From Eledone cirrhosa (Eukaryota): a stretch of 64,000 bases of DNA. The notes under the pieces are model-generated. The model did not search any database, was not told the origin of the DNA, and saw only the letters and a program-made list of their open reading frames with translations. The stretch is taken from assembly GCA_964016885.1 (NCBI GenBank), contig OZ024744.1, positions 106,330,001 through 106,394,000 on the forward strand, in the 5' to 3' direction. Position numbers and translations under genes: made by a program. Shown here in pieces: positions 4,123-53,700 of this stretch (the stretch's first letter is position 1; each line of letters opens with the position of its first letter).

Positions 4123-5320
4123 AGAATAGAAGCAATAACACACCCAGAGAAGCTTTGAGACTGATAAAAGAACTTTCTGGTAAGAAGAGGCAGAATGTAG
4201 TATATATCGAAAGGGAAGACTGCCTTGGGAGTTGGAGGGTGCACTTTCACAAATTCCTCTCAGTAGACAATCATTGTGGCCCAGACATAGAGATTGGCCC
4301 ATTATTTGAAATCCATCCAGAGATAAGTATCGCTAAATTCTCGGTAGAAGAAGAGAATATTGACCTAAATGGCAATGAAACCAAGCAAAGCTCCTGAGCT
4401 TGATTCTCTAACTATAGACCTATGGAAAATACCCCAAACTAACAATTTTCTTCACATTGAAACCTTTGAAAGGCACAGGCCTGAGGAATGGGGAATATCA
4501 GGAATAGTACCAATACCCTCAAAAGGTAACCTTACCATCTGCACCAAACATAGAGGCATCAGTCTTATACATTGTAGCAAAAACTTACAATAAGATGTCC
4601 CTGAATAGAATCAGACCATATATTGACCACACTCTACATGGATTTCATCTATTTCACTCTACTACCTCACACATCTTGGCTCTAAAAAAGGATTATTGAG
4701 GAGGTACAGAATCACAAGAAGGAGGCAGCACTTGTATTAATAGATTTCAAGATGGCTTTCAATCCAATCAACCAAATGAAAATGCTCAAAATTCTTCTTG
4801 TGTATGGAATACTCCACTAGATTGTGATTGAAATTAAAGTCAGGTATGAAAATACTTCAACTCCTTGTAATGGACCAATGAAGGAAACTCAGACTTATTC
4901 TCCATTGATACTGGAGTTCTCAGGGAGATCCTCTGACTCTTTTCCTCTTTGTAATTTGCCTTGATTTCGCATTGTGTAATGCCTTTGCACCATCAGACAA
5001 GATAATGCTGAAAAGTCGACAAACTACCCGACATCCGGAGGTAGTTCTACCAGAAATGCCTTATGCAGATAACATAGCTTTCCTGGAAAGTATCATCAGA
5101 GAAGCTGAGGACATATTACACAAAATGGAGGCTGCAAATTAAAATGCATGTCAATACAATGTCAAATAAATACATGTGCTGAATGATTCGGAGTTTGAGG
5201 AAGTGGATGACTTATAATACCTTGGTGGGTTTATGAACACAGAGCATGATGAGGACACAGGATAGGGAAGGCATGGGGGGGGGGGGGGGGGAGGTCTCAA
5301 CACCTTGTCAAAGATGTGAG

Positions 5321-6168
5321 TAGCTCTGATGAAGGAATCTATGAACATGAGGCTATTCAAAACAATGGTTGAGTCCATTCTTCTCTACAGATGGGAGTAG
5401 CTCTGATGAAGGAATCTATGAACATGAGGCTATTCAAAACAATGGTTGAGTCCATTCTTCTCTACAGATGGGAGTAGCTCTGATGAAGGAATCTATGAAC
5501 ATGAGGCTATTCAAAACAATGGTTGAGTCCATTCTTCTCTACAGATGGGAGTAGCTCTGATGAAGGAATCTATGAACATGAGGCTATTCAAAACAATGGT
5601 TGAGTCCATTCTTCTCTACAGATGGGAGTAGCTCTGATGAAGGAATCTATGAACATGAGGCTATTCAAAACAATGGTTGAGTCCATTCTTCTCTACAGAT
5701 GGGAGTAGCTCTGATGAAGGAATCTATGAACATGAGGCTATTCAAAACAATGGTTGAATCCATTCTTCTCTACAGATGTGAGTAGCTCTGATGAAGGAAT
5801 CTATGAACATGAGGCTATTCAAAACAATGGTTGAGTCCATTCTTCTCTACAGATGGGAGTAGCTCTGATGAAGGAATCTATGAACATGAGGCTATTCAAA
5901 ACAATGGTTGAGTCCATTCTTCTCTACAGATGGGAGTAGCTCTGATGAAGGAATCTATGAACATGAGGCTATTCAAAACAATGGTTGAGTCCATTCTCCT
6001 CTACAGATGGGAGTAGCTCTGATGAAGGAATCTATGAACATGAGGCTATTCAAAACAATGGTTGAGTCCATTCTCCTCTACAGATGGGAGTAGCTCTGAT
6101 GAAGGAATCTATGAACATGAGGCTATTCAAAACAATGGTTGAGTCCATTCTTCTCTACAGATGGGAGT
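5321..6168. repeat. 77-bp tandem repeat x11 derived from RTE ORF2 coding sequence
   Basis: tagctctgat recurs at 5321, 5398, 5475 ... 6091; the unit encodes the RTE motif MRLFKTMVESILLY and the LINE resumes after the array. Confidence 0.95.

Positions 6169-8963: not shown

Positions 8964-9036
<73 letters not shown>
8964..9036. repeat. (AAAT)n/(AAT)n microsatellite
   Basis: Direct. Confidence 0.98.
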
Positions 9037-9037
<1 letters not shown>

Positions 9038-9490
9038 TTTTCTTTATTAACCACAAGGGTTTACATAAAGTAGACATTAAGGACAGTACAGGACAATACA
9101 GGACGGTACAAATGGGCATTTCTGCATGTAAAAAAAAACAGAGGATGTAATAAAATAACAAAGAAAAATTCCCCAATAGGGGGGGGGGGGGGAGACTTCC
9201 GAGAGACATTTGTGGAGAAAGCCCATTAAAAGGCCACAGTGACCCTGACCACCAGGGCAAGTGCCCTCTCCCAGTTTTCCACCTTTAATTTACAGACACA
9301 TACTCAGAGAAGGCCCATTCATTCGAGCCATACTTGCTTCTCTCACCCATCTTTCAACAAAATGCTGGGAAGAGAGCACTTCCCTCTCTACCCTGATTTT
9401 CCTTTTCAAATGAAATTTGAAAAAGTTAATCAGGGCATCACCGAAGAGGTAAGTGCTCGTCTTCAGCCCTTTCAAACATGTCCACCATAC
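9037..9490 (-). mobile_element. 5'-truncated 3' end of a Tx1/L1-like LINE between (ATT)n tracts
   Basis: Minus-strand WWTCLKGLK...FFKFHLKRKIRVEREVLSSQHFVERWV resembles the Tx1-clade ORF2 C-terminus; 3' UTR ends aataaagaaaac(att)n. Confidence 0.6.
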
Positions 9491-9508
9491 TAATAATAAT
9501 AATAATAA

Positions 9509-9698
9509 TTGTTTCTACTTTTGGCACAAGGCCAGCAATTATCCTAGTGTATTACTGGTACTTTATTTTATCGACCCCGTAAGGATGAAAGGCAAAGTTA
9601 ACCTCGGGGGGATTAGAACTCAGAACGTAAAGGTGTCATAATTCTATGTTGCAAAGCATGGTGACAAACGCTCTACCGATACTGCCAATCCACTGCCT
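9509..9698 (-). mobile_element. SINE family 1 copy with (ATT)n tail
   Basis: Same core; tail continues into the (AAT)n tract at 9491-9508. Confidence 0.9.
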
Positions 9699-9727
9699 TT
9701 ATAATAATAATAATAATAATACTGCCC

Positions 9728-9792
<65 letters not shown>

Positions 9793-9794
<2 letters not shown>

Positions 9795-10937
9795 TGCAAC
9801 AATTGGATTATCTACATATCTAAGGGAATCACATGATTGGATGATCAAACTCGTTTTGAAACACGAAAGCATCAAAAGATCATATTCCATTACAAGAGAT
9901 GCACAAAGATACAGTAATGGACTACAAATTTCAGAAGTCCCATTTACTGCTGAAATGGAAAACACAGAAAAAGCAAAGCAGGTAAAAGTAACTGCAAAGA
10001 AAGAACTGCTACAGAAACTGGCTAAGAAATGGCAAGAAAAGCCTCTGTATGGAAAATACCCAGAGCGAGCTAACAATCCTGATGTTGACAAAACTTTAAC
10101 CCATCAGTGGTTGGCATCCTCTGGACTGAAATCAGAGACTGAAGGACTGATTATATCAGCACAAGATCAGTGTCTGCCAACAAAAAATTACCAAGCCAAC
10201 ATAATAAAAAATGGATGCAACCCATTATGCCTTGTGTGTAAAAATCAACCAGAGACCATTGATCATATAATTTCAATGTGCAGTCCTATAGCTCCAACCG
10301 AATACCTAAACAGGCATGACAGAGCTGCACAATACATACATTGGATAATGTGTAAGCATTTTGACCTGCCCCATCAAAAGAATTGATGGGAGCATCAACC
10401 ACCTCCCATACTTGAAAAAGATCACATCTCAATCTTGTGGAACTTTAGCATCCAAACAGACCGAAAAATAGATGCAAATAGACCTGATATAATATTGAAG
10501 GACTTTCAAAAGAGGGTATGCCTGCTAATTGATATGTCTGTTCCAACAGACAAGAATGTATCTATAAAAACATTTGAAAAATTGAGCAAGTATAAGGACC
10601 TGGAGATAGAAATTGGAAAAATGTGGAAATTGAGAACTAAAACAATACCAGTGGTTGTAGGCGCTCTGGGAATGATACCTAAGGGGTCTAATGACTACTT
10701 ATCGCAAATCCCAGGAAACCCGCGTATAGGAGAAATACAAAAGATAGTACTAATGGGAACTGCCCATATACTAAGGAAGATTCTGTCAATATAAGTACAT
10801 CACAAGTCTAAACACTAAAGATGCATGTGTGAATATGTATGTTCTTTCTTGAACATGGCGGACCTTGTTGTCTCTTGAGGTCACTGGTTGTGACTTGGTG
10901 ATAACTCGTATGAACATAAAGCAAGATAAATGCAACT

Positions 10938-10938
<1 letters not shown>
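9793..10938 (+). mobile_element. R4/Dong-type RLE retrotransposon family A, 5'-truncated 3' fragment in (TAA)n
   Basis: CCHC motif CLVCKNQPETIDHIISMC, RHD, RLE NRPDIILKD..LIDMSVP..EKLSKYKDL; a TGG>TGA stop at ~10384; near-identical to 16844-17985; (AAT)n on both sides. Confidence 0.93.
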
Positions 10939-10979
<41 letters not shown>

Positions 10980-10980
10980 T

Positions 10981-11398
10981 TCCTTGGTCTTATTGAATTT
11001 TGAATTATAAATGCTCTGCTACTATAACTGTTGGCTCCTGAAGAACAAAGGGTAAAAATGTACATTGAGCTTAACTTAACTTATCAATGAAAATGGTGAA
11101 CTATTACCTTATATATATAAATAATCTGTTCTTATAATACATATATATATCATGATATATATATGTATTACTATAAACCTAACTAAAATTTAAAATATAT
11201 ACACAAAGAGTCTTGCCATCCTCCTATAGTATTTAAAAACCTTATTCCTAATATTAGTCATAGGATATCTACCATATCTTCTTCTGTAGACATTTTTAAT
11301 AAAGCAGCCCCTTATGTACATTTTTACCCTTCATTCTTCAGGAGCCAACAGTTATAGTAGCAGAGCATTTATAATTCAAAATTCATTAAGACCAAGGA
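10981..11398. mobile_element. Element with 85-bp terminal inverted repeats, flanked by (AAT)n on the left and (ATT)n on the right
   Basis: 10981-11065 is the reverse complement of 11314-11398 with 3 mismatches. Confidence 0.8.
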
Positions 11399-11412
11399 TT
11401 ATTATTATTATT

Positions 11413-14400
11413 GTTCTTTGAGTCTCAGTCATTGATGTTATTTAACTGGAAAGTTTGTTGAAATGAATATCAAGCCACTACCTGCAGCCTCAGACATTCA
11501 GGACGTATCAGAGGGTTCTTGCTGTTCCCAGCAAGCATGCCTTTTGAAGTGTTCCAAAAAGCGGGGCTGGACTAATTTTCTTTAACCATCCTTGGAAACT
11601 CTTTGAGATAGTACCTAGTGCTCCTATGACAATTGGGACGACCTTGATTTCATGGCAGTTCCAAATCCTTTTTAACTCCCACTTTAAATCCTGGTATCGA
11701 CTAATTTTCTCCCTCTCCTTTTCTTGCACTCTCGTGTCAAATGGGCAGGCTACATCTACAATCAGGCACAATCTTTTTTCCTTGTCCAAAACCACCAGGT
11801 CAGGCCTATTGTGTTCCAGTTTCTTGTCCGTCTGTATCCTAAAATCCCATAACACCTTCACCTGATCGTTTTCTATCACTGACTCTGGCTTATGTTCATT
11901 TCACTTCTCAGAATGTGGTAAATTGTTTACTTTGCATAGGTGCCAGTGGATCACCCTGCCCATCACATCATGTCTCCAGCCCTTATAGTGAGTCTGGGCT
12001 AGGTGTTTACACTTGGATACAATGTGAGCCACAGTCTCCTCTCTCTCTCCACAGATCCTGCACAGTGGGCTAGCCTCCTCCTTGTAAATATGGTGTTTCA
12101 CCCACTTCGTTCTGAGGGCCTGCTCTTGCGCAGCCATTAGCATTCCTTCTAAAGCCTTTTTAAGGCCTCCTCTTTTTAACCAGTTCCATGTCTGTGGATC
12201 TCTAAATTCAGTTTTCCTAAAGAAGGTACTATGAAGGGATTTTTCCTGAAGGCTGCTCTTCCTCATCATTGTTATTTCCTCCTTGGACATCCCCTGGTCT
12301 ATTGTCCTCTCCTTCATTACAATTCTGAACATTGGCTCCCTACTGTCAGTCACGTATTTGCGCAGGTTGTTTTTCTCCATCTGAACACAGTCCTCTATGC
12401 TGATAAGACTTCTTCCACCTTCAGATCTCTTTAAGTAGTGTCTATCAACATCACTCCTCTTGTGGAACATGTTGTAGATAGTCAATAGCTTCCTAGTCTT
12501 CCTATCCATTTCTTTTTGTTCAGCAACATTCCATTTCAGAATTCCCGCACTGTACCTAATAATAGACACAGCTCAGGAATTCACTGCACTTATGACATTC
12601 CTACTATTTAGATTTGATTTTAATACGCTCCTTACTCTCCTAACGTACTCAGATCTTATCAATTCCTTCATTTTTTTTGTTCTTGATGTCATCTGCCTCC
12701 AGAACACCTAAATATTTGTATCCTTCTTCAGTGTCAATTTCCTTTATCATCTCACCTGTTGGTACCTGGATTCCATTGCTTCTTGCTCAATTTACCCCCT
12801 CTTCATCACAAGGACTCCACACTTACTAATACCAAATTGCATACATATATCATTGCTGAAAATATGGACAGTGTCAACAAGCACATCCAACTCCTTCTCA
12901 CGCTTCCCAAAGAGTTTATGATCGTCCATGAAGAGGAGGTGGTTGATGGTAAGTTCTCCCTTTCACAACTTGTATCCTGCTCTCACTTTTCACAGTATAA
13001 TGGTCAGGGGTGTCAGGGCAAGGACAAACAACAGAGAGGACAGACTATCTCCCTGGAAGATACCTCTCTTGACCTTCATGCCTCCCAAGGATTCTCCAGC
13101 TGATGTTAACTCTGTTTTCCAGGACTTCATACTTTTGCTCAACAACTGTCTGATGTTATCTGCCACCTTGAAGATCTCTAGGCTTTTGATTATCCAAGAA
13201 TGAGGTACCATGTCGAATGCCTTTTTGTAATCTATCCATCCCATGGCAAGACCAGTGTGTCTCCTCTTGCAATTCCTCATTACCATCTTATCAATAAGCA
13301 ACTGGTCCTTTGTACCACGAGACTTCTTTCGGCATCCTTTCTGTTCGTCCGGTAACAAGTTGTTTATGTGGTGGTGTTGGTAGATTTCCTCAGACACAAT
13401 GCTTATTAACAGTTTCCACATTACGGACAGACATGTGATAGGTCTATAGTTGGTAACATCATTACCCTTGATTTGGTCTTTCATTACCAGAACTGTTGTA
13501 CTTTTTGTCAACCACTCTGGTACCTCACCCGACATCAAGCAGTCATTGAGCATGGTTGTCAGTTTTGGGTAGAGGGATGTTATATTTTTAATCCAATACC
13601 CCTGCACACCATCTGGGCCTGGTGATTTCCACTTGGTTAGTTTTCTGGCCTGCCCTTTAAGAGTTTCAACTGTGATACTCAAATCAGTTTGTTGGTGTGC
13701 TTGTTCACTAATCTCCCTTTGTACTGTCTCAATCCACACTGCCTGATCATTATGTTCAACATCCTGCTCCCATATTCCTCTCCAGAATGTCTTAGTCTGT
13801 TCCATCTCAGGGATCAAGTCGTTGCCTCTTTCTTTCCCTTCAAGCTGTCCAAACAACATCTTCTGGTTGTTGTCAAACATGCGGTTCTGTCTATACTGAC
13901 TAACTCTGTTCTTATACCGCCTAATCTTTGCACTCTTTGCTACAATGTGTTGCTTCAGTTCCTTTATGATAATATTTAGCTTTTTCCCCTAGTTTTGTAC
14001 TTTATTTCCAATCTATCTTTAGTGTCTATGTTTTGTAGTGTCCCATTCAGTAGGGACTCAAGCTTTCCAATGTCATATCTCATTTCCTTGATTTGACCAT
14101 TCAGTCGTTTCTTCCACCAAGGTTCTGATCTTTCTTGTTTATTGTTTCCTCTCGTTTTTATGCCAAGTAATTTCCTCACCGCATTTACTGTTCCTTTAAG
14201 GATATTGTTGCACTGGTGAAGGCTCCTCGCCTCAAGGTATGGGATGACTTTGTTTACCTTAGCTGTTGTTTCTTTTAACTTTTTCCTGTCTACAAATCTT
14301 AGGTTCATAGGTTTCCCACTATCATTGTTCATTTCATCTACCACTAAGTTTAGGATATCAACCAAATCTTGTCCTAGCCCGTCAGCATTCATTTCCTCAA

Positions 14401-15045
14401 TGGCCGTATCTTTGTTCCAGATGTTATTTATTTCAGCATTCAGATCATTGTCTGCTTCAGATGCTTCCTCCGTTCTCTCAACCTCTTCACCTTCATTTCC
14501 TACTGGCTCGTTTGTCTGGCATACTCCACTCTCCATTTCTAACCTAATCTCTCTGCTCATTTCCTCCAGTTCCAGCTCGCTTATCCACCCATTAGTTCTT
14601 ATTACCCGAGCCTGCCCAGTCAATTTTTGTTCCTCTAATTTAAATAGACCAATCTCGTTCCAGATATTATGCGTCCGTTTCCTATAGCCTTTCTCCTTGG
14701 GGTTACTCTTCAGGTAACATTCCATGACAGTTCTATTCAATTCTTTCGTCCAGTTGGTTCTGGTCCCTTTCCTTCTTTTCTTCCTCCGACACCGGCAGTA
14801 TTTGGATGACAGCCAGGTCCCTGCTGCTGGGCCAGGGGGCACTTGCTGGGTGAGAATCTGTCACATGACATTCTAGTCTCCATTTCACCGTTATTCGAAC
14901 TGTTTAGGTTCGACATTTAAACACTCATATCGAGGATTGGTGAATGTATGGTTACATAACCACCGGTGATTTCATCAGCCCCAGTGATTTCATCACCCCC
15001 GGTGATTTTAGCGTGGCACCATCACGCTGTAGACGAACATAAATA
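11413..15045 (-). mobile_element. R4/Dong-type RLE retrotransposon family B, apparently full-length but frameshifted
   Basis: ORF pieces 13976-14842 (WTKELNRTVMECY..GYRKR), 12990-13880 (NYRPITCL, WIDYKKAFD, GIFQGDSLS), FMDD at ~12921-12932, 11901-12569 (CRICGEREETVAHIVSKC, RHD), 11508-11879 (NRPDLVVLD RLE); (ATT)n-like flanks. Confidence 0.93.
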
Positions 15046-15081
15046 AATAAACAAATAAATATTTTTATTATTATTGTTGTT

Positions 15082-15232
15082 ATTCCTTGAATCTCAGTCA
15101 TTGATGTTGGTTAACTGGAAAGTCCGTTGGAATGAATATCAAGCCACTACCTGCAGCCTCAGATATTCAGGACGTATCGGAGGGTTCTTGCTGTTCCAAG
15201 CAAGCATGCCTTTTGAAGCGTTCCAAAAAGCG
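15082..15232 (-). mobile_element. Very short 3'-end copy of family B (last codons plus 3' UTR)
   Basis: Near-identical to 15269-15419, separated from it by (ATT)n. Confidence 0.88.
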
Positions 15233-15268
15233 TTATTATTATTATTATTATTATTATTGTTATTGTTA

Positions 15269-16817
15269 TTCCTTGAATCTCAGTCATTGATGTTGGTTAA
15301 CTGGAAAGTCCGTTGGATTGAATATCAAGCCACTACCTGCAGCCTCAGATATTCAGGACGTATCGGAGGGTTCTTGCTGTTCCAAGCAAGCATGCCTTTT
15401 GAAGCGTTCCAAAAAGCGTGAAGGGGCCGATTTTCTTTAACCATCCCTGGAAACCTTTGGAGATAGTCCCCAGTGCGCCTATGACAATCGGGATCACTTT
15501 GACTTCATGGCAGTTCCAAATCCTTTTCACCTCCCACTTTAGGTCCTGGTATCGGTTAATTTTCTCCCTCTCCTTCTCTTGCACTCTCGTGTCGAACGGG
15601 CAGGCCACATCCACAATCAGGCACGATCTTTTTTCTTTGTCCACAACCACCAGGTCAGGTCTATTGTGTTCCAGTTTTTTGTCCGTCTGTATCCTAAAAT
15701 CCCACAGCACCTTCACCTGACTGTTCTCCATCACCGCCTCTGGCCTATGCTCATACCATTTCTCAGAATGTGGTAGATTGTTTACTTTGCACAGGTGCCA
15801 GTGGATCACCCTGCCCATCACATCGTGTCTCCAGCCCTTATAGTGGGTCTGGGCTAGGTGTTTACACTCGGACACAATGTGAGCCACAGTCTCCTCTCTC
15901 TCTCCACAGATCCTGCACAGTGGGCTAGCCTCCTCCTTGTAGATATGGTGCTTCAACCACTTCGTTTTGAGGGCCTGCTCCTGCGCAGCCATTAGCATTC
16001 CTTCTGTAGCCTTTTTGAGGTCTCCTCTTCTCAACCAGTTCCATGTCTGTGGATCTCTAAATTCAGTTTTCTCAAAGAAGGTACTATGAAGGGATTTTCC
16101 CTTAAGGCTGCTCTTCCTCCTTGATGTTATTTCCTCCTTGGATATCCCCTGGCCTACTGTCCCCTCCTTCAGTACAGCTCTGAGCATTGGCTCCTTACTA
16201 TAGGTCACGTATTTGTATAGGTTGTTTTTCTCCATCTGAACACAGTCCTCTATGCTGATAAGACCTCTTCCACCCTCAGATCTCTTTAGGTAGAGTCTAT
16301 CGACATCACTCCTCTTGTGGAACATGTTGTAGATAGTCAATAGCTTCCTAGTCTTCCTATCCATTTCTTTTTGTTCAGCAACATTCCATCTCAGAATTCC
16401 CGCACTGTACCTAATAATAGACACAGCTCGGGAATTTACTGCGCTTATGGCATTTCTGCTGTTCAGATGTGACTTCAATACGCTCCTTACTCTCCGAATG
16501 TATTCAGTTCTTAACAATTCCTTCATTTTTTTGTTCTTTATGCCATCAGCCTCCAGAACGCCCAAATACTTGTATCCTTCCTCAGAGTCAATTTCCTTTA
16601 TCATCTCACCTGTTGGTATCTGGATCCCGTTACTTCTGCTCAACCTACCCCTCTTCATCACAATGACTCCACATTTACCAATACCAAACTGCATACATAT
16701 ATCACTGCTGAAAATACGGACAGTGTCAACAAGCACATCCAACTCCTTCTCACTTTTCGTCCATGAAGAGGAGGTGATTGATGGTAAGCTCTCCCCTTCC
16801 CAACTTGTATCCTGCTC
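15269..16817 (-). mobile_element. R4/Dong-type family B variant, 5'-truncated at the RT active site
   Basis: Open frame through thumb, CCHC and RLE (ORF 15345-16850); ~17-nt deletion within the HLLFMDD motif relative to the 11413-15045 copy; (ATT)n on both sides. Confidence 0.92.
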
Positions 16818-16843
16818 TATTATTATTATTATTATTATTATTA

Positions 16844-19800
16844 TTTGCATTTATCTTGCTTTATGTTTATACGAGTTATCACCAAGTCACAACCAGTGAC
16901 CTCAAGAGACAACAAGGTCCGCCATGTTCAAGAAAGAACACACATATTCACACATGCATCCTTAGTGTTTAGACTTGTGATGTACTTATATTGACAGGAT
17001 CTTCCTTAGTATATGGGCAGTTCCCATTAGTACTATCTTTTGTATTTCTCCTATACGCGGGTTTCCTGGGATTTGCGATAAGTAGTCGTTAGACCCCTTA
17101 GGTATCATTCCCAGAGCGCCTACAACCACTGGTATTGTTTTAGTTCTCAATTTCCACATTTTTCCAATTTCTATCTCCAGGTCCTTATACTTGCTCAATT
17201 TTTCAAATGTTTTTATAGATACATTCTTGTCTATTGGAACAGACATATCAATTAGCAGGCATACCCTCCTTTGAAAGTCCTTCAATATTATATCAGGTCT
17301 ATTTGCATCTATTTTTCGGTCTGTTTGGATGCTAAAGTTCCACAAGATTGAGATGTGATCTTTTTCAAGTATGGGAGGTGGTTGATGCTCCCACCAATTC
17401 TTTTGATGGGGCAGGTCAAAATGCTTGCACATTATCCAATGTATGTATTGTGCAGCTCTGTCATGCCTGTTTAGGTATTCGGTTGGAGCTATAGGACTGC
17501 ACATTGAAATTATATGGTCAATGGTCTCTGGTTGTTTTTTGCATACACGGCATAATGGGCTGCACCCATTTTTTATTATGTTGGCTTGGTAATTTTTTGT
17601 TGGCAGACACTGATCTTGTGCGGATATAATCAGTCCTTCAGTCTCCGATTTCAGTCCAGAGGATGCCAACCACTGATGGGTTAAAGTTTTGTCAACATCA
17701 GGATTGTTAGCTCGCTCTGGGTATTTTCCATACAGAGGCTTTTCTTGCCATTTCTTAGCCAGTTTCTGTAGCAGTTCTTTCTTTGCAGTTACTTTTACCT
17801 GCTTTGCTTTTTTTGTGTTTTCCATTTCAGCAGTAAATGGGGCTTCTGAAATTTGTAGTCCATTACTGTATCTTTGTGCATCTTTTGTAATGGAATATGA
17901 TCTTTTGGTGCTTTCGTGTTTCAAAACGAGTTTGATCATCCAATCATGTGATTCCCTTAGATATGTGGATAATCCAATTGTTGCAGTTTTCAACGCAATG
18001 TCTAACTGGATTAACCCACGTCCTCCTTCTTTCCTAGGGAGATATATTCTATCTATGTCTGCCTTAGGGTGATGCATTCTGTGCATGGTTAAGAATTTTC
18101 GGATTTTTGTATCGAGCCTACGGATCTCTGTGCTTGACCAGTTGATGACATTGTAACTGTAGGTTACTACTGGTATGGCAAGCGTGTTTATGGCATCGAT
18201 CCTATTCCTTGCATTCAATTCCGTTCTTAAGATTGCTCTGACTCTGCGGTAACATTCCTTCCTTATCCTTTCCCTCATTGTCGAGTGCTTGATTCCGTCT
18301 CCTTCACAAACACCTAGATATTTGTAAGTTTGTTCTTGATCAAGCTCTCTTATCACGTTCCCCCGATCAAGATTAATGTCTGAACTCTTCAGCAGCTTTC
18401 CTCTGGTGAACGTTGCTTTGGCGCATTTATCCAGTCCAAACTCCATTTTAATGTCATCACTGAACTGCTTCACAGTGGATAATAGCCCTTGCAATTGTTC
18501 ATCATTTTTTGCAAATAGTTTCAGGTCATCCATGTAGAACAGGTGATTAATGGTTTTGTCATAGACTCTATATCCATGTTTTGTTTCATTGAGCATTTTA
18601 CTTAATGGTATAAGTGCGATGCAGAATAAAAGCGGTGATAAAGAGTCACCCTGAAAAATTCCACAATTAATGTTAACTTCTCCAGCTTCCAGTGATTTTG
18701 TTTCACTATTCAAAAGGAGTGTCGTTCTCCATGTCCTCATACTGAATGACAAAAACCTCCTGATAACGGGGGATATTTTGAAAATCTCTAAACATTTTTC
18801 AATCCAACTGTGTGGCAAACTATCAAATGCTTTTTTATAATCTATCCAAGCAATCGATAGATTTTTGTGTCTATTATGACAATCTTCCAGTATCATTTTG
18901 TTAACCAGAAGCTGATCCTTACAGCCATATGAGCCTCGTTTACACCCTTTCTGCTCAATGGGAAATAGGTCATTTGTTATCAGGTGGTCATATGTGTATT
19001 CAGTTAGGACTGATGTTAAAATTTTATACATTGTGGTCAAGCAGGTTATCGGTCTGTAATTTTTGGGATTGTTTGTCTCATCATTCTTCGGTAGCAGGAA
19101 TGTAATGCCGTTAACTAGCCATGATGGTATCTTTTCTGGCTCCTTAACTATTTCATTGTAAAGTTGGGCTAACAGCTCATGAGACTCTGTGAAGGCATTT
19201 ATCCAAAAGTTTTGTATTTTGTCTTTTCCTGGGGATTTCCATTTGCTGGTTTTTCTTAGAGCCAAGCGCAGCTGTTCAACTGTTATATTTTCCCATGTTT
19301 GTTCTTCAAGGTGAGCTGTTTCTTTCATTTGTCTGTCTATCCATGGGGCATGTATGTTATGAACTTTTTCTTCGGCCCAGATCTTTTCCCAGAATTCTTG
19401 CACTTCCTCCTTGGGTGGTATTGATTTAGCAGTTATTGTTGACTTACCAATTTTTCTGTAGAAGTTTCTTTGGTTGTTTTTGAACATATTATTGTCCTTA
19501 TAGAATCTAGATCGTTTTTCAAAGCGCCTTATACGAGCAGCTTTGGCCGACACTTTTTGCTTGATTGTTTCTATCAGCATGTCTATGTCACATGTTGATC
19601 TTATACTGTACTTTTTTTTCAATTTTCTAAGTTTAGTTTGTTTAACATGTTCACCTACTTTATAGTTTGTTAAAATTTCTATGTCAGATCGGAGAAGGTT
19701 TATTTGGCGATTGATGTTATCTTGCCAAGTAGATTTCTTGTGGGAATTCCTTTGTTTTTTCATCTTCACTCCACATAAGTGAGTGGTGACTTTAGCCGAT

Positions 19801-20178
19801 GCATAATAGAGATGATTTAAGTCAGTAATGCTTAGTTTGTTTGTGATGATAATGTTTTTGAGAATTATGTTAGTCTTGTGTATTATCTTTTGGTTCTGTT
19901 TGGAGTTCTGGATCTTAGGGAGGGTGTCTCGTTCCCCCATGTCAGATTCTTTCATTTTCATCCATTCGATCATAATTTCATCCTTCAAGTTGGCAAGTTC
20001 ATTTTCATTCATTTCTTTATCATTTACGATCTCATTATTTTCATTTGGAGTTTCATCCTGAGCATGCACTCCCTCCACTTTTTCGCTCCTTTCTTTAATT
20101 TGTTCTATTGCCAGTGATTCCGCCCCAACTCTGGGATTCGAAGTGTTACAGTTTACCTCGTTTTCACTGACACATGCT

Positions 20179-20180
<2 letters not shown>
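16844..20180 (-). mobile_element. R4/Dong-type family A, long copy with intact ORF, in (TAA)n
   Basis: (ATT)n at 16818-16843 and 20181-20237; 3' UTR ends ...gcaagataaatgca as in the 9793-10938 copy. Confidence 0.95.
16986..20180 (-). CDS. RT / CCHC zinc knuckle / restriction-like endonuclease polyprotein (~1060 codons, no stops; N-terminus probably truncated)
   Basis: KSPGKD, NYRPITCL, QKGC, GCKDQLL, WIDYKKAFDS, GIFQGDSLSPLLF, HLFYMDDLKL, YKYLG, CRVCKKQPETIDHIISMC, RHD, NRPDIILKD...IDMSVP...EKLSKYKDL; the first ~30 aa of the listed 1094-aa ORF come from the SINE and microsatellite. Confidence 0.93.
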
Positions 20181-20237
<57 letters not shown>

Positions 20238-20238
<1 letters not shown>

Positions 20239-20396
20239 GGTAGAGGATCGGACACCACGCTTTGCAGCATAGAGTTACGGCCCTTTACGGTCTGAATTCA
20301 AATCCCGCCGAGGTTAACTTTGCCTTTCATCCTTACGGGGTCGATAAAATAAAGTACCAGTAATGTACTGGGGTAATTGCTGGCCTTGTGCCAAAA
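20238..20396 (+). mobile_element. SINE family 1 copy lacking its first ~18 nt
   Basis: cggtagaggatcggacacc...gcctttcatccttacggggtcgataaaataaagtaccag. Confidence 0.88.
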
Positions 20397-20479
20397 TGCC
20401 CTTAATAACAGGCCCTTAAAAATAGCGGTTTCAACAAACAAATCAAATATATACCTACTCCTCCTACTACCACTAAACA

Positions 20480-21135
20480 CAATAATAGGAAAAGAAAAAT
20501 TATATGGTTTACTCCACCTTTCTCTTTAACAGTTAAAACTAATGTAGACAGAAAATTCCTTGAAACTTTTAGACAAACATTTCCCCCAACAACATAGATA
20601 TAATAAGATATTTGATAGAAATTTAATAAAAATTTGCTACTCTTGCTGCCCATCCATGAAATCTAAAATTACCAACATGAATATCACTAAAGGAAATCCA
20701 GGATGTAGTTGAAGAAAAGCTGAAGAATGCTCTTTACGGAGCAAATATAATACGAAATCGATCGTATACGAAGTTAAAGTAACACCTATTAACAATAACC
20801 AACCAGCCATGAGTGAGCGATATGTGGATATGACGCGAGATAGATTCAAACTCAGATACTACGCACGTCGCTTCCTTCAGACACCCAGATAAAAGGAAAA
20901 CTACGGTGCTGGCAAATACAGTGTGGTAGTTAAAAGAACGTAGGATTCCATATTTGATTGATTGGTCTATTTTAGATTATTCAAAAGAATACCAGAAAGG
21001 CACAAAAATATGTTCTTTGTGCATAACCGAAAAATACAGAATCCTGCAAAATATGAAATCTCCTAATACAATTCTAAAACTGAGATCTTCAGAAGTTGTC
21101 CACACATGAAATCACATCTTCTTTCCAGCTGGTAT
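20480..21135 (+). pseudogene. Penelope-like element remnant (C-terminal linker and GIY-YIG endonuclease)
   Basis: RKIIWFTPPFS..VKTNV, DKHFP, GCS*RK..C, SIVYEVKVT, YVDMT, FKLRYY, CSLCITEKY, CPH; frameshifted. Confidence 0.8.
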
Positions 21136-29458: not shown

Positions 29459-31705
29459 AGTCCTTGGGTGTCTTTTTGTTTGGGGTCATTGGGTTTAAAA
29501 CCCCCACTTGGTCCTTGGGTGTCTTTTTGTTTGGGGTCATTGGGTTTAAACCCCCACTTGGTCCTTGGGTGTCTTTTGTCTTGGGTCATTGGGTTTAAAA
29601 CCCCCACTTGGTCTTTGGGTGTCTTTTGTTTGGGGTCATTGAGTTTAAAAACCCCACTTGGTCCTTGGGTGTCTTTTGTCTTGGGTCATTGGGTTTAAAA
29701 GCCCCACTTGGTCTTTGGGTGTCTTTTTGTTTGAGGTCATTGGATTTAAAACCCCCACTTGGTCCTTGGGTGTCTTTTGTCTTAGATCATTGGGTTTAAA
29801 ACCCCCACTTGGTCTTTGGGTGTCTTTTTGTTTGGGGTCATTGGGTTTAAAACCCCCACTTGGTCTTTGGGTGTCTTTTTGTTTGGGGTCATTGGGTTTA
29901 AAACCCCCACTTGGTCTTTGGGTGTCTTTTGTCTTGGGTCATTGGGTTTAAAACCCCCACTTGGTCTTTGGGTGTCTTTTGTTTGGGGTCATTGGATTTA
30001 AAACCCCCACTTGGTCCTTGGGTGTCTTTTGTCTTAGGTCATTGGGTTTAAAACCCCCACTTGGTCTTTGGGTGTCTTTTTGTTTGGGGTCATTGGGTTT
30101 AAAACACCCACTTGGTCTTTGGGTGTCTTTTTGTTTGGGGTCATTGGGTTTAAAACCCCCACTTGGTCCTTGGGTGTCTTTTGTCTTGGGTCATTGGGTT
30201 TAAAACCCCCACTTGGTCTTTGGGTGTATTTTTGTTTGGGGTCATTGGGTTTAAAACCCCCACTTGGTCCTTGGGTGTCTTTTGTCTTGGGTCATTGGGT
30301 TTAAAACCCCTACTTGGTCTTTGGGTGTCTTTTTGTTTGGGGTCATTGGATTTAAAACCCCCACTTGGTCTTTGGGTGTCTTTTTGTTTGGGGGTCATTG
30401 GATTTAAAACACCCACTTGGTCTTTGGGTGTCTTTTGTCTTAGGTCATTGGGTTTAAAACCCCCACTTGATCTTTGGGTGTCTTTTTGTTTGGGGTCATT
30501 GGGTTTAAAACCCCCCACTTGGTCTTTGGGTGTCTTTTTGTTTGGGGTCATTGGGTTTAAAACCCCCACTTGGTCTTTGGGTGTCTTTTGTCTTGGGTCA
30601 TTGGGTTTAAAACCCCCACTTGGTCTTTGGGTGTCTTTTTGTTTGGGGTCATTGGGTTTAAAACCCCCACTTGGTCTTTGGGTGTCTTTTTTTTGGGGGT
30701 CATTGGGTTTAAAACCCCCACTTGGTCTTTGGGTGTATTTTTGTTTGGGGTCATTGGGTTTAATACCCCCACTTGGTCCTTGGGTGTCTTTTGTCTTGGG
30801 TCATTGGGTTTAAAACCCCCACTTGGTCTTTGGGTGTCTTTTGTCTTGGGTCATTGGGTTTAAAAGCCCCACTTGGTCTTTGGGTGTCTTTTTGTTTGAG
30901 GTCATTGGATTTAAAACCCCCACTTGGTCCTTGTGTGTCTTTTGTCTTAGGTCATTGGGTTTAAAACCCCCCACTTGGTCTTTGGGTGTCTTTTTGTCTT
31001 AGGTCATTGGGTTTAAAACCCCCACTTGGTCTTTGGGTGTCTTTTGTCTTGGATCATTGGGTTTAAAACCTCCACTTGGTCTTTGGGTGTCTTTTGTCTT
31101 GGGTCATTGGGTTTAAAACCCCCACTTGGTCTTTGGGTGTCTTTTTGTTTGGGGGTCATTGGATTTAAAACACCCACTTGGTCTTTGGGTGTCTTTTGTC
31201 TTAGGTCATTGGGTTTAAAACCCCCACTTGATCTTTGGGTGTCTTTTTGTTTGGGGTCATTGGGTTTAAAACCCCCCCACTTGGTCTTTGGGTGTCTTTT
31301 TGTTTGGGGTCATTGGGTTTAAAACCCCCACTTGGTCTTTGGGTGTCTTTTGTCTTGGGTCATTGGGTTTAAAACCCCCACTTGGTCTTTGGGTGTCTTT
31401 TTGTTTGGGGTCATTGGATTTAAAACCCCCACTTGGGCCTTGGGTGTCTTTTGTCTTAGGTCATTGGGTTTAAAACCCCCACTTGGTCTTTGGGTGTCTT
31501 TTTGTTTGGGGTCATTGGGCTTAAAACCCCCACTTGGTCTTTGGGAGTCTTTTTGTTTGGGGTCATTGGATTTAAAACCCCCACTTGGTTTTGGGTGGCT
31601 TTTGTCTTGGGTCATTGGGTTTAAAACCCCCACTTGGTCTTTGGGTGTCTTTTTGTTTGGGGTCATTGGGTTTAAAACCCCCACTTGGGCCTTAGGTGTC
31701 TTTTG
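29459..31705. repeat. 50-51-bp minisatellite, roughly 44 copies
   Basis: gtctttgggtgtctttttgtttggggtcattgggtttaaaacccccacttg, with two alternating length variants. Confidence 0.97.
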
Positions 31706-31890: not shown

Positions 31891-33423
31891 AATGATCAGA
31901 AAAACACAAAAATATACAAAATATAAATACGTGTTTATAGAAAGGAACAGGCATATCATGTTTTTTAAACAATGTCATGGATTGGCACCACAAGTCTTTT
32001 AAAACAGTGTCATGTCATGGATTGGCACCACAAGTTTTTTATGTCATGGATTGGCAACCACAAGTTTTTTATGTCATGGATTGGCAACCACAAGTTTTTT
32101 ATGTCATGGATTGGCAACCACAAGTCTTTTATGTCATAGATTGGCACCACAACTTTTTTATGTCATGGATTGGCACCACAACTTTTTTATGTCATGGATT
32201 GGTACCACAAGTATTTTAAAACAGTGTCATGTCATTGATTTGCCACAACAAGTTTTTTAAAATAGTATCATGTCATGGATTGGCACCACAAGTCTTTTAA
32301 ATATGGATTGGCCCGCACAAGTTTTTTAAACAATGTCATGGATTGGCCCGTGCAAGTTTTTTAAACAATGTCATGGATTGGCACCACAAGTTTTTTAAAC
32401 AATGTCATGGATTGGCACCACAAGTTTTTTAAACAATGTCATGGATTGGCACCACAAATTTTTAAAACAATGTCATGGATTGGCACCACAAGTTTTTTAA
32501 ACAATGTCATGGATTGGCTCCACAAGTTTTTTAAACAATGTCATGGATTGGCACCACAAGTTTTTTAAACAATGTCATGGATTGGCTCCACATGTTTTTT
32601 AAACAATGTCATGGATTGGCACCACAAGTTTTTTAAACAATGTCATGGATTGGCTCCACAAGTTTTTTAAACAATGTCATGGATTGGCACCACAAGTTTT
32701 TTAAACAATGTCATGGATTGGCACCACAAGTTTTTTAAACAATGTCATGGATTGGCTCCACAAGTTTTTAAAACAATGTCATGGATTGGCACCACAAGTT
32801 TTTAAAACAATGTCATGGATTGGCACCACAAGTTTTTTAAACAATGTCATGGATTGGCACCACAAGTTTTTTAAACAATGTCATGGATTGGCTCCACAAG
32901 TTTTTAAAACAATGTCATGGATTGGCACCACAAGTTTTTAAAACAATGTCATGGATTGGCACCACAAGTTTTTTAAACAATGTCATGGATTGGCACCACA
33001 AGTTTTTAAAACAATGTCATGGATTGGCTCCACAAGTTTTTAAAACAATGTCATGGATTGGCACCACAAGTTTTTAAAACAATGTCATGGATTGGCACCA
33101 CAAGTTTTTAAAACAATGTCATGGATTGGCACCACAAGTTTTTAAAACAATGTCATGGATTGGCACCACAAGTTTTTAAAACAATGTCATGGATTGGCAC
33201 CACAAGTTTTTTAAACAATGTCATGGATTGGCACCACAAGTTTTTAAAACAATGTCATGGGTTGGCACCACAAGTTTTTTAAACAATGTCATGGATTGGC
33301 ACCACAAGTTTTTTAAAACAGTATATCTAGATACATTGTTTGAAAAATTTGTGGTGTCAATCCATGACATGCCTGTTCCTTTCTATAACACATGTATTTA
33401 TTTTTTGTGTTTTTCTGATCATT
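31891..33423. mobile_element. Foldback (hairpin) element whose left arm contains a 34-bp minisatellite (~31972-33320)
   Basis: aatgatcagaaaaacacaaaaa..tatagaaaggaacaggcat (31891-31955) is inverted at ~33368-33423; a single inverted copy of the 34-bp unit lies at ~33334-33370; palindromic centre tatctagata. Confidence 0.85.
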
Positions 33424-47792: not shown

Positions 47793-50700
47793 ACAAACAG
47801 TGCTCTGTCCACTCTATAAGGTGGTCATGTTGGTGACAACAAAAAGTGCCCTGTCCACTCTATAAGGTGGTCATGTTGGTGACAACAAAAAGTGCTCTGT
47901 CCACTCTATAAGGTGGTCATGTTGGTGATACAACAAAAAGTGCCCTGTCCACTCTATAAGGTGGTCATGCTGGTGACACAACAAACAGTGCCCTGTCCAC
48001 TCTATAAGGTGGTCATGTTGGTGACACAACAAACAGTGCCCTGCCCACTCTATAAGGTGGTCATGTTGGTGACAACAAAAAGTGCCCTGTCCACTCTATA
48101 AGGTGGTCATGTTGGTGACAACAAACAGTGCTCTGTCCACTCTATAAGGTGGTCATGTTGGTGATACAACAAAAAGTGCCCTGTCCACTCTATAAGGTGG
48201 TCATGCTGGTGACACAACAAACAGTGCCCTGTCCACTCTATAAGGTGGTCATGCTGGTGACACAACAAAAAGTGCTCTGTCCACTCTATAAGGTGGTCAT
48301 GCTGGTGACACAACAAACAGTGCCCTGCCCACTCTATAAGGTGGTCATGCTGGTGACACAACAAAAAGTGCTCTGTCCACTCTATAAGGTGGTCATGCTG
48401 GTGACACAACAAACAGTGCCCTGCCCACTCTATAAGGTGGTCATGCTGGTGACACAACAAACAGTGCCCTGCCCACTCTATAAGGTGGTCATGCTGGTGA
48501 CACAACAAACAGTGCCCTGTCCACTCTATAAGGTGGTCATGCTGGTGACACAACAAAAAGTGCTCTGTCCACTCTATAAGGTGGTCATGTTGGTGACACA
48601 ACAAACAGTGCCCTGCCCACTCTATAAGGTGGTCATGTTGGTGACACACAAACAGTGCTCTGTCCACTCTATAAGGTGGTCATGTTGGTGACACACAAAC
48701 AGTGCTCTGTCCACTCTATAAGGTGGTCATGTTGGTGACACAACAAAAAGTGCTCTGTCCACTCTATAAGGTGGTCATGCTGGTGACACAACAAACAGTG
48801 CCCTGCCCACTCTATAAGGTGGTCATGTTGGTGACACACAAACAGTGCTCTGTCCACTCTATAAGGTGGTCATGCTGGTGACACACAAACAGTGCTCTGT
48901 CCACTCTATAAGGTGGTCATGTTGGTGACACACAAACAGTGCTCTGTCCACTCTATAGGGTGGTCATGCTGGTGACACACAAACAGTGCTCTGTCCACTC
49001 TATAAGATGGTCATGTTGGTGACACACAAACAGTGCTCTGTCCACTCTATAAGGTGGTCATGCTGGTGACACAACAAACAGTGCTCTGTCCACTCTATAA
49101 GGTGGTCATGCTGGTGACACAACAAACAGTGCTCTGTCCACTCTATAAGGTGGTCATGCTGGTGACACAACAAACAGTGCCCTGCCCACTCTATAAGGTG
49201 GTAATGTGGGTGACACAACAAACAGTGCTCTGTCCACTCTATAAGGTGGTCATGTTGGTGATACACAAACAGTGCTCTGTCCACTCTATAAGGTGGTCAT
49301 GCTGGTGACACACAAACAGTGCTCTGTCCACTCTATAAGGTGGTCATGTTGGTGACACAACAAACAGTGCTCTGTCCACTCTATAAGGTGGTCATGTTGG
49401 TGATACAACAAAAAGTGCCCTGTCCACTCTATAAGATGGTCATGTGGGTGACACACAAACAGTGCCCTGCCCACTCTATAAGGTGGTCATGTTGGTGACA
49501 CAACAAACAGTGCCCTGTCCACTCTATAAGGTGGTCATGTGGGTGACACAACAAACAGTGCTCTGCCCACTCTATAAGATGGTCATGTTGGTGACACACA
49601 AACAGTGCTCTGTCCACTCTATAAGGTGGTCATGTTGGTGACACAACAAACAGTGCCCTGTCCACTCTATAAGGTGGTCATGTGGGTGACACACAAACAG
49701 TGCTCTGTCCACTCTATAAGATGGTCATGTTGGTGATACAACAAAAAGTGCCCTGTCCACTCTATAAGGTGGTCATGTGGGTGACACACAAACAGTGCTC
49801 TGTCCATTCTATAAGGTGGTCATGTTGGTGACACAACAAACAGTGCTCTGTCCACTCTATAAGGTGGTCATGCTGGTGACAACAAACAGTGCCCTGCCCA
49901 CTCTATAAGGTGGTCATGTTGGTGACACACAAACAGTGCCCTGCCCACTCTATAAGGTGGTCATGTTGGTGACACACAAACAGTGCCCTGTCCACTCTAT
50001 AAGGTGGTCATGTTGGTGACACACAAACAGTGCTCTGTCCACTCTATAAGATGGTCATGTTGGTGACACAACAAAAAGTGCCCTGTCCACTCTATAAGAT
50101 GGTCATGTGGGTGACACACAAACAGTGCTCTGTCCACTCTATAAGGTGGTCATGTTGGTGACACACAAACAGTGCCCTGCCCACTCTATAAGGTGGTCAT
50201 GTTGGTGACACAACAAAAAGTGCCCTGTCCACTCTATAAGATGGTCATGTGGGTGACACACAAACAGTGCTCTGTCCACTCTATAAGGTGGTCATGTGGG
50301 TGACACACAAACAGTGCTCTGTCCACTCTATAAGGTGGTCATGTGGGTGACACACAAACAGTGCCCTGTCCACTCTATAAGGTGGTCATGCTGGTGACAC
50401 ACAAACAGTGCTCTGTCCACTCTATAAGATGGTCATGTTGGTGACACACAAACAGTGCCCTGTCCACTCTATAAGGTGGTCATGTTGGTGACACACAAAC
50501 AGTGCCCTGTCCACTCTATAAGGTGGTCATGCTGGTGACACACAAACAGTGCTCTGTCCACTCTATAAGATGGTCATGTTGGTGACACACAAACAGTGCT
50601 CTGCCCACTCTATAAGATGGTCATGTTGGTGACACAACAAACAGTGCCCTGCCCACTCTATAAGATGGTCATGTGGGTGACACAACAAAAAGTGCCCTGC

Positions 50701-53700
50701 CCACTCTATAATGTGGTCATGTGGGTGACACACAAACAGTGCCCTGTCCACTCTATAAGGTGGTCATGTTGGTGACACACAAACAGTGCTCTGTCCACTC
50801 TATAAGGTGGTCATGTGGGTGACACAACAAAAAGTGCCCTGTCCACTCTATAAGGTGGTCATGCTGGTGACACAACAAACAGTGCCCTGTCCACTCTATA
50901 AGGTGGTCATGCTGGTGACACAACAAACAGTGCTCTGTCCACTCTATAAGGTGGTCATGTTGGTGACACACAAACAGTGCTCTGTCCACTCTATAAGGTG
51001 GTCATGTGGGTGACACACAAACAGTGCTCTGTCCACTCTATAAGGTGGTCATGCTGGTGACACAACAAAAAGTTCTCTGTCCACTCTATAAGGTGGTCAT
51101 GTTGGTGACACACAAACAGTGCTCTGTCCACTCTATAAGGTGGTCATGCTGGTGACACAACAAAAAGTGCCCTGTCCACTCTATAAGGTGGTCATGCTGG
51201 TGACACACAAACAGTGCTCTGTCCACTCTATAAGGTGGTCATGTGGGTGACACACAAACAGTGCTCTGTCCACTCTATAAGGTGGTCATGCTGGTGACAC
51301 AACAAAAAGTGCCCTGTCCACTCTATAAGGTGGTCATGCTGGTGACACAACAAAAAGTGCTCTGTCCACTCTATAAGGTGGTCATGTTGGTGACACAACA
51401 AAAAGTGCCCTGCCCACTCTATAAGGTGGTCATGTTGGTGACAACAAAAAGTGCCCTGTCCACTCTATAAGGTGGTCATGCTGGTGACACAACAAAAAGT
51501 GCCCTGTCCACTCTATAAGGTGGTCATGTTGGTGACACAACAAAAAGTGCCCTGTCCACTCTATAAGGTGGTCATGTGGGTGACACAACAAACAGTGCCC
51601 TGTCCACTCTATAAGGTGGTCATGTGGGTGACACACAAAAAGTGCTCTGTCCACTCTATAAGGTGGTCATGTTGGTGACAACAAAAAGTGCCCTGCCCAC
51701 TCTATAAGGTGGTCATGTTGGTGACACAACAAAAAGTGCCCTGTCCACTCTATAAGGTGGTCATGTGGGTGACACACAAACAGTGCCCTGTCCACTCTAT
51801 AAGGTGGTCATGTTGGTGACACACAAACAGTGCCCTGTCCACTCTATAAGGTGGTCATGTTGGTGACACACAAACAGTGCCCTGTCCACTCTATAAGGTG
51901 GTCATGTTGGTGACACACAAACAGTGCCCTGTCCACTCTATAAGGTGGTCATGTTGGTGACACAACAAAAAGTGCCCTGTCCACTCTATAAGGTGGTCAT
52001 GTGGGTGACACAACAAACAGTGCTCTGTCCACTCTATAAGGTGGTCATGTTGGTGACAACAAAAAGTGCCCTGCCCACTCTATAAGGTGGTCATGTTGGT
52101 GACACAACAAACAGTGCCCTGTCCACTCTATAAGGTGGTCATGTTGGTGACACAACAAACAGTGCTCTGCCCACTCTATAAGGTGGTCATGTTGGTGACA
52201 CAACAAAAAGTGCTCTGTCCACTCTATAAGGTGGTCATGTTGGTGACACAACAAAAAGTGCTTTGTCCACTCTATAAGGTGGTCATGTTGGTGACACACA
52301 AACAGTGCTCTGTCCACTCTATAAGGTGGTCATGTTGGTGACACAACAAACAGTGCCCTGTCCACTCTATAAGGTGGTCATGTGGGTGACACAACAAACA
52401 GTGCTCTGCCCACTCTATAAGGTGGTCATGTTGGTGACACAACAAACAGTGCCCTGTCCACTCTATAAGGTGGTCATGTTGGTGACACAACAAACAGTGC
52501 CCTGTCCACTCTATAAGGTGGTCATGTTGGTGACACAACAAACAGTGCCCTGTCCACTCTATAAGGTGGTCATGTGGGTGACACACAAACAGTGCCCTGC
52601 CCACTCTATAAGGTGGTCATGTTGGTGACACAACAAACAGTGCTCTGTCCACTCTATAAGGTGGTCATGTTGGTGACACACAAACAGTGCTCTGTCCACT
52701 CTATAAGGTGGTCATGTTGGTGACACACAAACAGTGCTCTGTCCACTCTATAAGGTGGTCATGTTGGTGACACAACAAACAGTGCTCTGTCCACTCTATA
52801 AGGTGGTCATGTGGGTGACACACAAACAGTGCCCTGTCCACTCTATAAGATGGTCATGTTGGTGACACACAAACAGTGCTCTGTCCACTCTATAAGATGG
52901 TCATGTTGGTGACACACAAACAGTGCTCTGTCCACTCTATAAGATGGTCATGTTGGTGACACACAAACAGTGCTCTGTCCACTCTATAAGATGGTCATGT
53001 TGGTGACACACAAACAGTGCTCTGTCCACTCTATAAGATGGTCATGTTGGTGACACACAAACAGTGCTCTGTCCACTCTATAAGGTGGTCATGCTGGTGA
53101 CACAACAAACAGTGCCCTGTCCACTCTATAAGGTGGTCATGTTGGTGACACAACAAACAGTGCCCTGTCCACTCTATAAGGTGGTCATGTTGGTGACACA
53201 CAAACAGTGCTCTGTCCACTCTATAAGATGGTCATGTTGGTGACACAACAAACAGTGCCCTGTCCACTCTATAAGGTGGTCATGTTGGTGACACAACAAA
53301 CAGTGCCCTGTCCACTCTATAAGGTGGTCATGTTGGTGACACACAAACAGTGCTCTGTCCACTCTATAAGATGGTCATGTTGGTGACACAACAAAAAGTG
53401 CTCTGTCCACTCTATAAGATGGTCATGTTGGTGACACACAAACAGTGCTCTGTCCACTCTATAAGGTGGTCATGTTGGTGACACACAAACAGTGCCCTGT
53501 CCACTCTATAAGGTGGTCATGTTGGTGACACACAAACAGTTCCCTGTCCACTCTATAAGGTGGTCATGTTGGTGACACACAAACAGTGCTCTGTCCACTA
53601 TATAAGGTGGTCATGTTGGTGACACAACAAACAGTGCTCTGTCCACTCTATAAGGTGGTCATGTTGGTGACACACAAACAGTGCTCTGTCCACTCTATAA

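Follow-up and report, generated by a model that had tools for sequence, protein, structure and literature searches.

Two R4/Dong-type retrotransposon lineages in oriented (TAA)n stacks of Eledone cirrhosa, and a probable handover of a 5' end between them

The window analyzed here is a stretch of 64,000 nt from the 3.0-Gb genome of Eledone cirrhosa (contig OZ024744.1). Between its positions 8964 and 20396 it contains five copies of two families of long interspersed nuclear elements (LINEs) of R4/Dong type, A (copies A1 and A2) and B (copies B1, B2, and B3), inserted in (TAA)n microsatellite (table 1). A first-pass annotation had placed five such copies on one microsatellite landing pad. The places of the copies and the sense-strand (TAA)n on both sides of each were confirmed, except that B1 starts at 15061 and not at 15045; the AT-rich stretch at this start, previously read as degenerate target, is B1's own 5' untranslated region (UTR), and 39 of 40 matches to this end start at query position 6. 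The single landing pad did not stand: there are two oppositely oriented TAA tracts, one on the + strand (9702–10979), which holds A1, and one on the − strand (11399–20237), which holds B1, B2, B3, and A2 head-to-tail with short microsatellite between them, as had been described. The run at 8964–9036 belongs to a third family, X, and contains no Dong copy. Because both A1 and the four-copy stack follow the flip of the TAA strand, the locus provides an internal control for orientation.

The copies differ in age and in completeness, all five being truncated at the 5' end. A2 begins at base 1573 of a 4909-nt full A copy, so that the first 152 aa are gone, and is 99.85% identical to an intact A copy. 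A1, which is 98.0% identical to A2, is an older variant (98.2%); the extra bases at its 3' end, considered as a possible target-site duplication, are a subfamily variant present in other loci. B1 keeps the whole, though broken, region of its open reading frame (ORF) and has lost most of its 5' UTR; it represents an older subfamily, 90.0% identical to young B and 89.4% identical to B3. B2 and B3 (99.3% identical to each other) both belong to young B, at 98.0% and 98.3%, respectively. The earlier view of A and B as clearly different families holds, because their 3' UTRs differ and their only nucleotide match is 71 nt long and lies inside the reverse transcriptase (RT). The repeat at 9509–9700 and 20237–20396 is one that we tentatively take, from its size, to be a short interspersed nuclear element (SINE).

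Table 1. Features of the (TAA)n locus (window positions; APE, apurinic/apyrimidinic endonuclease; RLE, restriction-like endonuclease).
Feature	Positions	Strand	Remarks
(TAAA)n/(TAA)n run	8964..9036		3' tail of the − strand X copy; no A or B copy
Family X copy, 5'-truncated (two-ORF APE-RT LINE, L1 group)	9037..9490	−	(ATT)n on sense strand at both ends
(TAA)6 spacer separating X from SINE-like repeat	9491..9508		
SINE-like dispersed repeat with (ATT)n tail	9509..9700	−	46 matches in 400 kb
(TAA)n target 5' of A1	9702..9792	+	One short interruption
A1, 5'-truncated, older 3'-end variant of family A	9793..10938	+	Zinc knuckle, RLE, 3' UTR; one in-frame stop
(TAA)n tail and downstream target of A1	10939..10979	+	
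Spacer at flip of TAA orientation	10980..11398		Two inverted ~85-bp copies of the end of a dispersed repeat, Y, flanking a Penelope-like piece
(TAA)n tail of B1	11399..11412	−	
B1, older subfamily of family B	11413..15061	−	Frame broken by changes and stops; RT, zinc knuckle, and RLE after a putative Myb-like N-terminus
B2, last 151 bp (3' end) of a young B copy	15082..15232	−	
B3, 5'-truncated young family B	15269..16817	−	17-bp deletion close to 5' junction
A2, 5'-truncated young family A	16844..20180	−	RT, zinc knuckle, and RLE in a 1064-aa open frame
(TAA)19 target upstream of A2	20181..20237	−	
Second SINE-like copy	20237..20396	+	Right edge of the block interrupting the Penelope-like relic

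Genomic copies (loci are cited by L numbers) gave the complete anatomy of both families. A full A copy (L074) measures 4909 nt, with a 1.1-kb 5' UTR and an intact ORF of 1216 aa, and a near-full B copy (L077) has an intact ORF of 1141 aa from stop to stop. Each family thus has a single long ORF, in which RVT_1 scored above cut-off and the Pfam domain search found no APE domain. In both, the RT is followed in the C-terminal part by a CCHC-type zinc knuckle and then by a PD..D..K RLE, and in an alignment of 116 proteins at least 80% keep the columns of the zinc-knuckle and RPD..D..K motifs. Among relatives with a solved structure, R2 proteins rank first (profile E-value 3e-60), with an alignment that extends through the knuckle and endonuclease region, and L1 ORF2p comes behind (3e-18). 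Membership of the R2 clade was nevertheless rejected, given that no N-terminal zinc-finger pattern precedes the RT region in any of the 116 proteins and that the target is (TAA)n rather than 28S ribosomal DNA. AlphaFold modelled B with a mean pLDDT (its confidence score) of 89.7 and with a confident four-helix domain at residues 41–113, and the nearest named Atlas clusters for the N-terminal parts of A and B are Myb clusters (0.85 and 0.86), which is a lead under the 0.9 line.

The two proteins are 36% identical to each other; each is 65–68% identical to proteins from other samples, coral proteins are among the relatives of A (an Oculina protein is 58% identical), and a 34-row protein tree, built without named references, places A and B apart, each in a starred clade of its own. 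Domain anatomy and target taken together fit two long-separated RT-RLE lineages of R4/Dong type. Family A is very young, as all 40 scored matches to the last 307 nt of A2, of 1226 candidates, are 100% identical. In an unselected sample, made up of 40 stretches of 10 kb each that start at round coordinates, seven A or B copies of at least 85% identity occur in three stretches, and A-like and B-like DNA makes up ~3.5% of the 400 kb. One of the unselected stretches (L195, 52–6048) contains diverged B-like relics, 68–80% identical to young B and without TAA flanks, which by their sequence appear to be a further, older Dong-type family. Contigs of three runs cover family A; runs labelled as two other organisms contain pieces of it at ~98–99% identity, one of them with a 3750-nt contig (56 differences, depth 5), which may reflect close relatives, a mixed sample, or transfer.

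TAA is the insertion target of A and B. A TAA tail was found at 30 of 30 A 3' ends, and a TAA run precedes 29 of 30 full-length A copies (the exception has an AAG run, with TAA ~170 nt further up) and 30 of 30 full-length young B copies. Among 62 distinct 5'-truncated A or B junctions, taken from all loci fetched (a pool enriched for arrays; six further matches were skipped as internal breaks), 56 have TAA within 45 nt and none has it on the opposite strand only. In the unselected sample, TAA is present at five of the six visible A or B 5' junctions, against a background in which a same-strand TAA run lies within 30 nt upstream of 0.28% of positions; moreover, 10 of its 24 TAA tracts adjoin A or B, all 10 in the expected orientation. 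Both the (TAA)n at most 5' junctions and the fixed orientation relative to the repeat, as proposed in the first-pass annotation, were therefore borne out genome-wide.

A different reading of these counts is that the TAA runs are 3' tails only, the stacks having formed by read-through, template-jump co-insertion, or local duplication, with no targeting. That every copy ends in TAA agrees with it, as do an array (L274) in which the same truncated copy occurs twice and the pair B2 and B3, which forms a 186-bp tandem at 97%. However, truncated copies also have (TAA)n at their 5' junction, where it cannot derive from the 5' terminus of the RNA, and the repeat is thus a target and not only a tail. 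In addition, solitary and outermost copies have upstream TAA beside unrelated DNA, neighbors are unlike in age and family in both directions, and B2 differs from B3 by one base and by a tail variant that occurs in other loci too. The tail-only explanation is largely refuted and we consider it very improbable.

Across the genome, stacks that combine A and B copies of different ages are frequent. Directly upstream, 15 of 30 full-length A copies and 13 of 30 full-length B copies have the 3' end of another A or B copy, and seven of these 13 neighbors do not exceed 97% identity to the young references. Older copies were also found downstream of young ones in extended loci. With old neighbors on both sides, stacks evidently grow by separate events at either end, and the mixed family and age of neighbors agree with the proposal that the tandem arrays arose by successive insertion. 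A polar growth with the young copy always upstream, at which the window and the extended loci hint, was discarded because of the seven old upstream neighbors of young B.

Often, (AAG)n runs are present at 5' junctions, or the first 5–20 bases of the element are repeated there once or twice (L039, L047, L049, L050, L054, L057, L092, L096, L020, L121, and L131). Such sequences would be expected if the second junction forms with slippage or by templated repair, and insertion junctions may in this way seed new microsatellite types.

The same repeat is used from the other strand by family X. This family (L066 and other loci) has two ORFs, with Exo_endo_phos, RVT_1, and zf-RVT domains, and its closest solved structure is L1 ORF2p (E-value 3e-52). 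X is an L1-group APE element, with an N-terminal APE, an RT, and a C-terminal zinc-binding domain in ORF2. No Tx1-named sequence was found among its 26 homologs, and its position in the Tx1 clade is one of resemblance only. On the sense strand of X, (ATT)n was read at 29 of 30 3' ends (the exception has a TTC run), at four of six short truncated junctions, and at 15 of the 17 outer 5' junctions that were visible, the latter from 19 loci picked by their 3' end alone. Full-length X copies stand head-to-head with A in L064–L068, L070, and L075, and A or B is often located in an X tail. X comprises at least three unlike types of 5' UTR/ORF1 (upstream parts of L064–L068, L070, and L075), two of which share the ORF2 region at 95–96% identity, and its front ends may thus be swapped as well. 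Some X junctions carry (TTC)n.

The three families raise the question of what reads the site. Instead of the protein, the (UAA)n tail of the RNA could pair with TTA-strand DNA at a nick or break and so guide priming. This would also account for X, whose complementary tail goes with the other strand, and in each of the three families tail and target strand match. The SINE-like repeat, with its ATT tail, points weakly the same way, as ATT lies upstream in 4 of 30 copies and TAA in none, although 4 of 30 also indicates that little specificity comes from a matching tail alone. Moreover, the RLE active-site pattern is complete in A and B, which also retain a putative Myb-like domain, and the passages on site choice in PMC7998251 and PMC4494074 credit it to the element's protein. 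We consider tail-guided priming unlikely. Specificity read by the protein, by analogy with the literature on these families, is the most likely basis.

Under protein-read targeting, the N-terminal Myb-like domain and the RLE would read the repeat, and the A or B protein would nick the TTA strand and prime there, in a target-primed reverse transcription. Each insertion would leave a fresh TAA tail for reuse by the next copy and would split one tract into two usable targets, such that arrays could grow on either side. X would do likewise on the other strand, its tails serving as targets for A and B.

The second result concerns the 5' ends. Full-length A and young B open with the same ~380-nt module. 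It is 81.5% identical between A and young B, whereas the modules of young B and of B1-type copies are 60% identical, despite 90% identity of their ORFs. In its first ~380 nt young B agrees with A, and from ~600 onwards it agrees with B1-type; sliding windows place the switch between about nt 400 and 600. The module follows the body consistently: among young-A module loci, 28 of 30 show the N-terminal tag of A and the other two are also A on closer look; 27 of 30 young-B module loci carry the tag of B and none that of A; 27 of 30 loci with an older version have an A body and three have no assigned body. In the 90 loci with these three versions, no third kind of body occurs among the assignable ones.

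A tree of 30 modules (19 of the 27 old-A loci, four young A, three young B, and four B1-type) arranges old A copies as a ladder towards young A, with young B inside it as sister to young A (99/97). Approximately unbiased (AU) tests rejected a single clade of A-body modules (P = 0.013) and a single clade of B-body modules (P = 0.0145; 32 rows). An identity of 81.5% cannot be vertical, since the proteins are 36% identical, the 3' UTRs are unalignable, and the module drifted to 60% between B subfamilies. Judged from these sequences, young B likely gained its first ~380 nt from A recently, on top of an older exchange between old A and B1-type, which may have gone in either direction.

In the alternative without transfer, the module would be a conserved functional RNA or promoter that A and B inherited from one ancestor, or each would have captured it on its own from some third source. 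This alternative draws on the first ~140 nt, which are similar across the four groups regardless of age, on the sharing between old A and B1-type, which may have come in either direction or from another source, and on the three of 30 old-module loci without an assigned body. Yet the nesting of young B inside A in the module tree, the single pair of body kinds among the assignable ones of the 90 loci, and the lack of a relevant Rfam match in three loci argue against it, and we regard this alternative as quite improbable. In the preferred reading, a transfer from A to young B, the module is presumed to be an internal promoter, given its position and the many full-length copies that share one start. 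It would act as such in both families and could pass between co-oriented neighbors by template switching or recombination, which homology left by an earlier exchange would ease.

The young A 5' UTR contains at 828–880 (L074, 5640–5700) a piece of the 3' end of the SINE-like repeat, which an older variant (L117) does not have. Its last ~150 nt (L074, about 5790–5910) are A-specific, well conserved, and contain nested inverted repeats, with a possible 7-bp loop pairing before the start codon, detected by eye; to judge by its sequence, this segment could be involved in translation start. In many copies of young B, the 5' UTR includes a tandem duplication of ~325 bp (L063, 2063–2880).

Taken together, these data support a reading in which A and B are R4/Dong-type lineages forming oriented (TAA)n stacks, and in which young B likely acquired its first ~380 nt from A; we put its probability at about 0.8. 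Several points weigh against it. Six of the 62 truncated junctions, all in older copies (85–94%), one of the six junctions of the unselected sample, and two of the 17 X junctions are without TAA or ATT, respectively. No target-site duplication was readable in 20 extended loci, and neither it nor a cleavage register can be read because the site is pure repeat. Some array members are duplications, as in L274 with its twice-occurring truncation point. The R4/Dong placement comes from anatomy and target, the protein tree having no named R4, Dong, Rex6, NeSL, or HERO sequence, and the Myb call is a lead below the Atlas 0.9 line, with no Myb family in the Pfam search of A and B. Lastly, the module tree has ~270 columns, is unrooted, has long branches to young B and B1-type and modest AU P values, and leaves out eight of the 27 old-A loci, in which the anchor motif did not match.

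The core observation, Dong in TAA, is already published, molluscs included. As described in passages of PMC7998251, R4/Dong elements have a single ORF with RT, a C-terminal RLE, and a divergent N-terminal Myb/SANT-like domain but no zinc fingers there, and Dong targets (TAA)n in most insects, molluscs, and cnidarians. By description, Dong of Bombyx mori, DongAg of Anopheles gambiae, DongBg of Biomphalaria glabrata, and Dong1/2 of Darwinula are like A and B in target and in anatomy, tentatively also in the N-terminal domain; the first three appear, with a list of microsatellite targeters, in the relevant part of PMC3812793, and the part of PMC4640811 on RLE clades reports tandem Utopia elements. 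Unlike these named Dongs, A and B are two 36%-identical lineages co-active in one genome, with high copy number, mixed stacks, and a 1.1-kb 5' UTR with a probably swapped front end. According to the pertinent passage of PMC3774820, B. mori Dong also has a self-cleaving ribozyme like that of hepatitis delta virus, which cleaves at the 5' junction; for A and B, three loci gave no relevant Rfam match in the 5' UTR, and a pattern scan run without a positive control gave none in four UTRs.

In cephalopods, Table 1 of PMC13282606 credits Octopus vulgaris with five Dong-R4 families of recent activity, which account for 1129 insertions, and with 13 families of L1-Tx1, PMC9115989 mentions a full-length Dong consensus in O. 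bimaculoides, and PMC8967140 a coleoid expansion of Dong-R4; the Dong-R4 passages of these papers contain no analysis of target, arrays, or 5' UTR. The probably swapped 5' end and the sharing of the target by two strands are the new parts. Mouse L1 families replace or borrow 5' UTRs, with template switching and recombination at the insertion site as proposed routes, and the passages of PMC3600994 that describe this concern exchange among close families, with non-homologous promoters in coexisting ones. In contrast, A and B coexist at 36% identity and share a homologous 5' module, and their common target makes them neighbors. For X, the account of Kibi (TC)n, Koshi (TTC)n, and crocodilian Tx1 (TTCC/TTTC)n elements in PMC4494074 describes two-ORF APE-RT elements with microsatellite at both junctions, as in X; X differs from these Tx1-clade targeters by its (ATT)n, on the strand opposite to that of Dong, and the passages of PMC4494074 and PMC3812793 on such targets name none of ATT type. 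The literature searched yielded no exchange of 5' UTRs between Dong lineages and no ATT-targeting L1-group element, although these families may be present in Repbase, in Dfam, in journals that require a subscription, or in supplements to the octopus repeat paper, all of which lay outside its scope.

The proposed 5' exchange is a recent event with a direction, between lineages far more distant than the L1 families known for swaps, and the shared module runs contrary to the L1 pattern of coexisting lineages with different promoters. The convergence of an APE family of the L1 group and two RLE families on one repeat, from opposite strands, also offers a natural way to tell whether site choice lies with the protein or with the RNA tail, and the very young intact copies permit a direct test of microsatellite recognition by an RLE type without a close solved relative (its matches being R2 and L1 only). 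The share of A and B in the DNA and in the bordering of TAA tracts bears on the origin of microsatellites and on marker design in this genome. More tentatively, and with slightly less than even confidence, the common (TAA)n/(ATT)n niche may act as a trading post for three autonomous LINE lineages with two endonuclease types, and drive the handover of promoter modules between ancient lineages. Such a niche would be self-renewing, fed from both strands, and would border a large share of long TAA tracts, and co-oriented stacking would force the 36%-identical Dong lineages to swap promoter modules repeatedly.

Other features of the window concern the history of the locus. The spacer at 10980–11398 was considered as a miniature inverted-repeat transposable element and rejected, as only the window copy matches whole and the 39 other scored places match one part. 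It includes, at 11169–11315, a piece of a relic, presumably Penelope-like from motifs in its translation, which resumes at 20397 (20397–20700). As the two relic halves overlap by 7 bp, the block 11316–20396 likely began as one small founder insertion, which the four Dong copies would then have enlarged to 9 kb. Elsewhere, the window contains long tandem arrays at 47793–54745, 29460–31705, 31960–33317, 61130–63490, 57415–58448, and 5312–6168, with periods of 48, 51, 34, 5, 74, and 77, and the unit of the 48-bp array resembles part of a dispersed repeat within the window.

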